Shown: one piece after another, positions 22,317-23,388 of the stretch
How the letters are laid out: each line of letters begins with the position of its first letter
Numbering within the stretch: the stretch's first letter is position 1
Notes under the pieces: generated by a model
The model's input: the letters and a program-made list of their open reading frames with translations, nothing else
What the model was told of the DNA's origin: nothing
The model's database searches: none
Position numbers and translations under genes: made by a program
From: Escherichia coli
GTDB taxonomy: Bacteria > Pseudomonadota > Gammaproteobacteria > Enterobacterales > Enterobacteriaceae
Direction: 5' to 3' (one strand)
NCBI RefSeq assembly: GCF_003790525.1
Contig: NZ_CP033635.1
DNA length: 64,000 bases

Positions 22317-23201
22317 ATGAAGCCTTTTTTGCGCTGGTGTTTCGTTGCGACAGCACTTACGCTTGCAGGATGCAGTAATACTTCCTGGCGTAAAAGTGAA
22401 GTCCTCGCGGTACCATTGCAACCGACTTTACAGCAGGAAGTGATTCTGGCACGTATGGAACAAATCCTTGCCAGTCGGGCTTTAACCGATGACGAACGCG
22501 CACAGCTTTTATATGAGCGCGGAGTGTTGTATGATAGTCTCGGTCTGAGGGCATTAGCGCGTAACGATTTTTCGCAAGCGCTGGCAATCCGACCGGATAT
22601 GCCTGAAGTATTCAATTACTTAGGCATATATTTAACGCAGGCAGGCAATTTTGATGCTGCCTATGAAGCGTTTGATTCTGTACTTGAGCTTGATCCAACT
22701 TACAACTACGCGCACTTGAATCGCGGGATCGCATTATATTACGGCGGTCGTGACAAGTTAGCGCAAGATGATCTGCTGGCGTTTTATCAAGACGATCCTA
22801 ATGATCCTTTCCGTAGTCTGTGGCTTTATCTCGCCGAGCAGAAGCTCGATGAGAAGCAGGCTAAAGAAGTGTTGAAACAGCACTTCGAAAAATCGGATAA
22901 GGAACAGTGGGGATGGAACATTGTCGAGTTCTACCTGGGCAACATTAGCGAACAAACGTTAATGGAAAGGCTCAAGGCGGACGCAACGGATAACACCTCG
23001 CTCGCTGAGCATCTCAGTGAAACCAACTTCTATTTAGGTAAGTACTACCTAAGTCTGGGGGATTTGGACAGCGCCACGGCACTGTTCAAACTGGCGGTTG
23101 CCAACAACGTTCATAACTTTGTTGAGCACCGATACGCATTGTTGGAATTATCGCTCCTGGGCCAGGACCAAGATGACCTGGCAGAATCGGACCAGCAATA
23201 G
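22317..23201 (+). CDS. nlpI: Lipoprotein NlpI (TPR repeats)
   Basis: 294-aa ORF with lipobox LTLAGCSN and TPR-like repeats. Confidence 0.95.
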
Positions 23202-23307
23202 CTGACGTACACATCAGCCCGTAATCTTTTTTGATTGCCATCACCTTAACGGGTGAGGGCGTTGTTGTTCGTTAATACACCTACTTTGAGCCGGTTCACA
23301 CTTTTCA

Positions 23308-23388
23308 ATGAAAATTGCTGATCAATTTCATGATGAGTTATGTAGACTGGCCGCCATTAATTTTGAGGCACACGTACTACATGGCTGA
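23308..23388 (+). CDS. yrbN: Small protein YrbN (26 aa) in deaD leader
   Basis: ATG 23308 ... TGA 23386-23388 encodes [26 protein letters not shown]; its stop overlaps the deaD start (ATGGCTGA). Below the ORF-track size cutoff. Confidence 0.7.

Follow-up and report, generated by a model that had tools for sequence, protein, structure and literature searches.

In bacteria, stop codons that lie inside the translation initiation region (TIR) of the following gene usually give positive coupling. Such an arrangement is found in coupled overlapping genes with AUGA, UGAUG or AUGnnUGA junctions, among them trpB-trpA and trpE-trpD, and in the coat and replicase genes of MS2 translation of the upstream gene opens a masked start downstream. 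Leader-peptide attenuators (ermC, cat/cmlA, secM-secA) combine a short ORF with three RNA segments, in which 2:3 pairing masks the downstream ribosome-binding site. In a further group, the uORF-Rho attenuators (tnaC-tnaA, mgtL-mgtA, corL-corA), a uORF is combined with Rho-dependent termination, and cspA-type cold-shock genes carry long, conserved and structured leaders. Here we compare the leader of the E. coli deaD (csdA) gene with these systems.

DeaD is the main E. coli cold-shock RNA helicase, and control in its leader is known to act via Rho and mRNA decay. About 90% of deaD transcription begins 838 nt upstream of the ATG, and DeaD represses its own synthesis, both via decay of the mRNA and via Rho-dependent termination within this leader (Ojha & Jain 2020). 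That study explained the autoregulation fully at the mRNA level, with no need for a translational component, and yrbN is unmentioned in it. A 2025 review describes cold-induced antitermination at deaD with the 'exact mechanism undetermined' (PMC12360218), and inhibition of elongation induces CspA, DeaD and InfC by a mechanism given as unknown (PMC11890864).

We analyzed a window of 64,000 nt of E. coli DNA (contig NZ_CP033635.1), in which the genes are ordered pnp-nlpI-yrbN-deaD-mtr. The original prediction had named a 26-codon ORF at 23308-23388 as yrbN, had described its stop codon as interlocked with the deaD start, and had taken this geometry to suggest translational coupling or a regulatory uORF. 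The sequence and the RefSeq annotation bear out the coordinates, the peptide and the name, as well as the interlock itself: ATGGCTGA, at 23381-23388, is common to both genes, with the deaD ATG in the +1 frame relative to yrbN (Table 1). The gene is the yrbN of E. coli K-12, with identical sequence, position and annotation. YrbN matched the NCBIfam equivalog family NF033440 (small_YrbN) over positions 1-26 of 26 with a score of 76.3 bits (cutoff 33), and the variants from Yersinia, Photorhabdus and Edwardsiella scored 74, 47 and 40 bits, respectively. Precomputed annotations give PF28071:YrbN for an identical gene; the Pfam-A copy searched here, presumably older than PF28071, held no match to YrbN. 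A 351-nt stretch around yrbN was present in 5425 of 5426 complete E. coli genomes, and in all matches listed yrbN is annotated at identical coordinates (protein YrbN, WP_010723222.1).

yrbN is an already annotated gene, its overlap with deaD is already published, and the leader-peptide idea is likewise not new, since a preprint (bioRxiv 10.1101/2021.03.08.434349) described the 8-nt yrbN/deaD overlap, proposed a leader peptide and credited the discovery to Hemm et al. 2008. The name 'yrbN_PAIR_0' in VanOrsdel 2018 was also considered and set aside, as it appears to mean YnfR and not yrbN. What we add is comparative support for the regulatory reading of yrbN, together with a specific structural model predicted from aligned sequences. 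The comparison suggests that yrbN is mainly a leader that opens a folded deaD ribosome-binding site, not a free-standing protein.

Table 1. Features of the deaD leader and the yrbN-deaD junction, in window coordinates.
Feature	Position	Strand	Source
deaD promoter (TTTATA-16-TATGAT) and TSS at -838, inside nlpI	22508..22543	+	promoter scan, Ojha & Jain 2020
Near-invariant 31-nt block TTTGAGCCGGTTCACACTTTTCAATGAAAAT: 5' arm of helix B and yrbN start codon, no Shine-Dalgarno (SD)	23284..23314	+	
Segment 1, 5' arm of helix B, pairs with 23335-23351	23288..23303	+	RNAalifold, pair table
A/U-rich inner hairpin including the yrbN AUG (UGAAA:UUUCA); its loop is the variable codons 3-7	23305..23333	+	
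yrbN CDS: ATG 23308-23310, 26 sense codons, TGA 23386-23388	23308..23388	+	sequence/ORF reading, RefSeq WP_010723222.1, NF033440
Segment 2, shared anti-TIR segment GAGTTATGTAGACTGGCCGCCA, yrbN codons 10-17, pairs with segment 1 or the deaD TIR	23335..23356	+	
Segment 3, deaD TIR: SD GAGG 23365-23368, spacer, AUG 23381-23383; 3' arm of helix D	23364..23383	+	
ATGGCTGA, 8-nt overlap in which the start of deaD and the stop of yrbN interlock	23381..23388	+	
deaD (csdA) CDS, 629 aa	23381..25270	+	ORF reading and RefSeq annotation

By a rough estimate, a 26-codon ORF ending in a start region has a chance of roughly 10% in a single genome. yrbN stands beyond chance because it is conserved across species, not because of its presence in one genome. 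Species loci were obtained by a genome scan with the DeaD N-terminus, using the best 80 matches, all from Enterobacterales species and spanning Enterobacteriaceae, Erwiniaceae, Yersinia, Hafnia, Pectobacterium and Photorhabdus; leaders from insect endosymbionts, from Plesiomonas isolates and from the families Morganellaceae and Budviciaceae fall outside the best 80. A representative search clustered at 50% identity, in which the DeaD proteins of E. coli, Vibrio and Pasteurella form one entry, gave three useful loci. Conservation across enterobacteria, which had been put forward as a check on the ORF, was indeed found. The yrbN ATG with an open frame of at least 18 codons is present in 79/79 Enterobacterales species loci with enough upstream sequence among the best 80 matches, and also in 14 further metagenome loci. 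In E. coli, as annotated, yrbN lies between nlpI and deaD, directly upstream of deaD, and the same placement was seen in 93 other loci. In the 79 species loci the position of the ATG is constant and the core F-[HL]-D-E-L-C-R-L-A-A is kept. Only the yrbN frame, of the three, stays open: among distinct sequences, stops occur in 0/46 within its first 18 codons, in 32/53 in the deaD frame upstream of the deaD ATG, and in 53/53 in the third frame. The distance from the yrbN ATG to the deaD ATG is 73, 70 or 67 nt, so that indels in yrbN are multiples of three.

In species and metagenome loci alike, the yrbN stop codon always falls between -19 and +8 from the deaD ATG, lying at +5 in E. coli and most other species, at +8 in Yersiniaceae and Photorhabdus, at -15 in Dickeya and at -19 (TAA, 18 aa) in most Erwiniaceae. 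Because the stop position shifts between lineages, the ATGGCTGA overlap is not universal, and the conserved feature, as read from these sequences, is a yrbN stop within the deaD ribosome-binding region and not the ATGGCTGA interlock. The proposal of coupling or a regulatory uORF is supported in part. The ORF, its frame and a stop in the deaD ribosome-binding region are kept, and codons 10-16 are significantly complementary to the deaD SD-AUG region; the 8-nt overlap itself is not the conserved feature (stops at -19, -15 and +8 elsewhere), and the direction of any effect on deaD would be a matter of inference. As a separate observation, Buttiauxella noackiae and Cedecea sulfonylureivorans carry an in-frame tandem duplication within deaD codons 1-13 (MTDIIETTTIETT... 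versus MTDIIETT...), and their yrbN still ends at +5 despite this duplication of the DeaD N-terminus.

Conservation was then considered at the level of single nucleotides. Two blocks are near-invariant, synonymous positions included: TTTGAGCCGGTTCACACTTTTCAATGAAAAT, which is mostly non-coding, and GAGTTATGTAGACTGGCCGCC (23335-23355, codons 10-16). The near-invariance of the former reaches 25 nt 5' of the yrbN ATG. Third-position entropy is 0.39-0.63 in yrbN, compared to 1.1-1.3 in deaD. Codons 10-16 are nearly frozen among the 46 distinct sequences, with CTG kept in 46/46, GCC in 45-46/46 and the two rare codons TTA and AGA in 44/46 and 45/46, respectively. At codons 3-6 and 17-21 the encoded amino acids vary freely. 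The conserved C-terminal residues of YrbN correspond to the deaD SD (GAGGCA, read as E-A) and the deaD AUG (CAUGGC, read as H-G). Most Erwiniaceae lack the final 8 residues. Within the core we counted about 8 non-synonymous and about 6 synonymous changes, giving a dN/dS that a rough estimate places near 0.5; the non-synonymous changes were Cys to Arg or Ser, Asp to Val or Ile, Glu to Lys or Ala, and Leu to Val. The pattern points to a constraint that is largely on the nucleotides and mostly not on the peptide. Constraints on the RNA (helix arms, SD and AUG) would explain the conservation of the peptide. The free codons, the near-equal core changes and the missing C-terminus argue for an RNA element overlaid by a translated ORF, not for a strongly selected peptide.

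These data bear directly on the alternative that survives best, namely that YrbN is a small protein acting in trans, for instance as a partner or modulator of DeaD or of the ribosome, and that the overlap is ordinary operon-style coupling for co-expression. We regard this as unlikely. It accords with the existence of a curated equivalog family (NF033440, PF28071), with the order-wide conservation of the ORF, its frame and its core, and with Erwinia RNA-seq, in which yrbN is co-regulated with the helicase gene and the two are co-induced. However, the conserved residues fall exactly on synonymously frozen nucleotides of the helix arms, the SD or the AUG, and the roughly estimated dN/dS of the core, the variable residues 3-6 and 17-21 and the absence of the last 8 residues from most Erwiniaceae all speak against a protein function. 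In our searches YrbN also lacked a transmembrane segment, matched none of the solved structures and had no relative beyond Enterobacterales.

We turned to the RNA structures in which these nucleotides could take part. Segment 2 is complementary both to segment 1 and to the deaD TIR. Its pairing with segment 1, helix B (23290-23303 with 23335-23351), is predicted by RNAalifold to enclose the yrbN start. The yrbN AUG lies in the inner hairpin, which is predicted to be weak; the GAAA:UUUC pairs of this hairpin are invariant and the top of its stem is not conserved. A search for a yrbN SD found none, the best anti-SD duplex reaching -3.9 kcal/mol against a background mean of -2.6. Because the arms are nearly invariant in the 52-sequence alignment, shuffle and covariation statistics were uninformative for helix B and for the alternative helix D. 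In the most divergent members, six single changes in helix B preserve pairing (Plesiomonas, Photorhabdus, Dickeya, Yersinia) and three disrupt it; in addition, a Plesiomonas MAG has a compensatory replacement of C-G by G-C at 23301-23337.

In helix D, 23340-23356 is predicted to pair with 23364-23382, a stretch that takes in the spacer along with part of the deaD SD and the first two letters (AU) of the start codon. Helices B and D are mutually exclusive as predicted, having 23340-23352 in common. In E. coli the local MFE fold is helix D, at -25.6 kcal/mol compared to -23.3 for helix B. The duplex between segment 2 and the deaD TIR has an energy of -18.7 kcal/mol, compared to -8.9±2.6 for shuffled TIRs, and it lies at or below the 5% tail in 31/34 distinct combinations, which come from related sequences and are not 31 independent tests. 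The complementarity survives different spacers, as in Dickeya (-20.7 kcal/mol). Across 56 distinct sequences the mean predicted probability that the deaD AUG is unpaired was 0.05, and the deaD TIR was predicted to be the fourth most structured among 48 neighboring genes. The deaD SD itself scores -5.6 kcal/mol, with a spacing of 11-12 nt. Helix D is predicted to be weak in the Cedecea/Buttiauxella clade, which carries the Cys to Arg change, and to be a minor form in most Erwiniaceae. The folding energy of the region is unexceptional (z = -1.2 for 118 nt and -2.0 for 232 nt), and a search of the region against Rfam matched no family.

Taken together, we favor, with about even confidence, the reading that yrbN is an Enterobacterales-specific translated leader ORF that works mainly in cis, unmasking and feeding the deaD start. 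The co-induction of yrbN and the helicase gene in Erwinia RNA-seq is in line with this reading. yrbN occupies the 3' end of the deaD leader, which is 838 nt long. According to the model, segment 2 would pair either with segment 1, enclosing the yrbN AUG in helix B, or with the deaD SD-AUG, closing deaD in helix D. A ribosome on yrbN codons 6-16 would cover segment 2 and thereby, we propose, free the deaD SD and AUG. It would terminate in the deaD start region, between -19 and +8, and then either re-initiate or make way for a new 30S subunit, so that deaD translation would be tied to translation of yrbN and probably also to its speed. We infer that translation of yrbN opens helix D and acts positively on deaD, the peptide being largely dispensable. 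If so, a translational layer would be added to the control of deaD, and a simple candidate would be at hand for how slowed ribosomes switch on a cold-shock gene. Otherwise yrbN would stay a small annotated gene with no assigned function, and the conservation of the RNA arms would have to be accounted for differently.

The proposed arrangement resembles coupled overlapping genes in that the upstream stop lies inside the downstream start region, and the MS2 coat-replicase pair in that the deaD SD and AUG are predicted to be paired with a sequence inside the upstream gene. Unlike in those pairs, yrbN has only 26 codons, has no SD of its own and encodes a seemingly dispensable peptide. The likeness to ermC, cat/cmlA and secM-secA lies in a short ORF with three segments of which a predicted 2:3 pairing masks the downstream ribosome-binding site, and in that a ribosome on segment 2 would unmask the deaD site. 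In contrast to the ermC, cat and secM leaders, the yrbN start lies inside the 1:2 hairpin, yrbN runs through the masked site and ends there, and no arrest motif or inducer is known for it. By eye, we recognized no known arrest motif in YrbN.

A more specific version of the cis-acting model is that yrbN is a sensor of ribosome speed in the deaD leader, through dwelling of ribosomes on the conserved rare codons UUA-UGU-AGA of segment 2. We give this version a low probability. The conserved rare codons TTA and AGA in segment 2 are only suggestive of stalling. Under slow elongation, as in cold shock or with chloramphenicol-type inhibitors, ribosomes would dwell there and hold the anti-TIR segment off the deaD start; the end of the leader could also be shielded from Rho, and DeaD synthesis would be raised. 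Were this true, it would provide a mechanism for the induction of DeaD by inhibition of elongation (PMC11890864) and for the cold antitermination at deaD (PMC12360218).

The edge of the phylogenetic range was represented by the Plesiomonas MAG, a single contig. In it the yrbN frame begins with TTG and is interrupted by TAA at codon 11, the nucleotide motifs and helix B are kept, and complementarity to the TIR is lacking (-5.8 versus -6.3 for shuffles). As far as one contig can indicate, Plesiomonas would fit the cis-acting model, with the yrbN ORF and helix D lost together.

The persistence of helix B beside a broken ORF is also what would be seen if the region were an RNA-only element of the deaD leader, serving stability or control by RNase or Rho, with the yrbN ORF an untranslated by-product. 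This possibility, which we judge improbable, is in line with the invariance of 25 nt of non-coding sequence upstream of the yrbN ATG, with the lack of a yrbN SD and with the suppression of synonymous change through the whole leader, parts of nlpI included. In addition, the column compositions predict few yrbN-frame stops in any case: under a column-independence null, which is circular, only 4% of sequences would be expected to have one. Against an RNA-only element, the variable A/T-rich loop is stop-rich in the two other frames and stop-free in the yrbN frame, every indel in yrbN is a multiple of three, and the yrbN stop stays in the deaD TIR though its position moves. Moreover, a tagged yrbN product was reportedly obtained by Hemm et al. 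in 2008, and the gene is said to have been named on that basis.

A translated yrbN could also act with the opposite sign, as a repressive uORF whose initiation opens helix B so that segment 2 locks the deaD start, with relief in the cold through reduced initiation. We consider this doubtful, and somewhat less probable again than an RNA-only element. The topology of helices B and D is the same as in the cis-leader model, cold would stabilize the A/U hairpin that holds the yrbN AUG, and helix B is predicted to be dominant in Erwiniaceae with short ORFs. On the other hand, no energy shift toward helix B was predicted at 15 °C, an elongating ribosome must cross segment 2 and so would disrupt helix D, and stops within a downstream TIR, as noted above, usually mean positive coupling. 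The predicted energies also do not support an RNA thermometer: going from 37 to 15 °C left helix D ahead by about 2.3 kcal/mol, with no cold switch to helix B, and the predicted probability that the E. coli deaD AUG is unpaired fell from 0.06 to 0.03. Finally, the notion that DeaD itself extends N-terminally into this region, following an older annotation of 646 aa that starts at ATG 23330, has next to no probability and was rejected, because the upstream deaD frame has stops in 32/53 distinct sequences, although in E. coli it is open up to TTG 23315, and RefSeq annotates the 629-aa form.

Beyond the order, no YrbN-family ORF was found in non-Enterobacterales loci that have nlpI upstream and 68-72% DeaD identity, which by our own reading, made with no taxonomic label, are Pasteurellaceae-like bacteria and unidentified low-GC gammaproteobacteria. 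More distant DeaD loci had neither nlpI nor a yrbN-like ORF. Some non-Enterobacterales loci have unrelated uORFs of 25-37 codons ending at -15, -6 or +5, and in these no significant complementarity to the deaD TIR was detected. Two such lineages with retained nlpI-deaD synteny carry non-homologous ATG uORFs of 28 codons (L082, 2402-2488) and 25 codons (L216, about 1120-1197), with stops 15 nt and 6 nt, respectively, ahead of the deaD ATG. A different conserved hairpin, GAAAGC...GCUUUC with a variable loop, takes the place of the yrbN element about 30-60 nt upstream of deaD in three loci that we assigned as Pasteurellaceae-like; in two of these loci the start of deaD reads ATGACTGA, and non-homologous uORFs there also end at +5. 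The repeated occurrence of uORFs that stop near the deaD start could be a matter of chance or go beyond it.

We also placed yrbN within the longer leader. In our promoter scan, the TATGAT -10 element of Ojha & Jain lies at 22530-22535, with the TSS at window position 22543. When 720 nt of the leader (101-820 nt upstream) are deleted, Rho control is lost and yrbN stays in place (Ojha & Jain 2020); the main Rho determinants are therefore upstream of yrbN. GC skew near yrbN showed no C>G bias and no Rut-like C-rich tract. The deaD leader is like tnaC-tnaA, mgtL-mgtA and corL-corA in joining a conserved uORF with Rho-dependent termination, here relieved by cold, and differs from them in that its main Rho determinants precede the uORF. 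Within nlpI, two patches (22632-22720 and 22947-23080) have a third-position entropy of 0.38-0.52, compared to about 1.0-1.3 elsewhere and in deaD; both are located 3' of the deaD TSS and so may belong to the deaD leader as functional elements.

With cspA-type leaders the deaD leader has in common that it is the long, conserved, structured leader of a cold-induced gene with a cold-box-like motif. It differs in having no predicted temperature switch or Rfam match, and cspA for its part has no leader ORF. The cold-box-like motif, TGACGTACACA at 23203-23213 (and 23199-23208), directly follows the nlpI stop codon and is one base off the cold box TGACGTACAGA, which Jiang, Fang and Inouye are said to have found in 1996 to be common to the cspA, cspB and csdA leaders. 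Its AGCTGAC is invariant in 52/52 aligned species, and 0.71 such matches are expected by chance per 64-kb window. Toone et al. mapped a 5' end 173 nt upstream of deaD, which corresponds to 23208, inside this motif.

Further downstream, a hairpin at 23241-23256 (UCACC-UUAAC-GGGUGA) covaries in Enterobacterales, with A-U to G-C in 9 sequences and C-G to U-A in 8. It is followed by a G/U-rich tract, GGGCGUUGUUGUUCGUU, and sits inside a larger helix that also involves the cold-box-like region. The hairpin could be an nlpI terminator or attenuator, or a processing signal; a simple terminator scan does not call it. In Serratia grimesii (L046, about 1690-1815), an insertion of about 124 nt (GAATCCCTGGGAGCTTAG...CACTAAGTGACGAGGATGCGGG), which resembles an ERIC repeat, separates the cold-box-like motif from the covarying hairpin, and the yrbN block downstream of it is intact.
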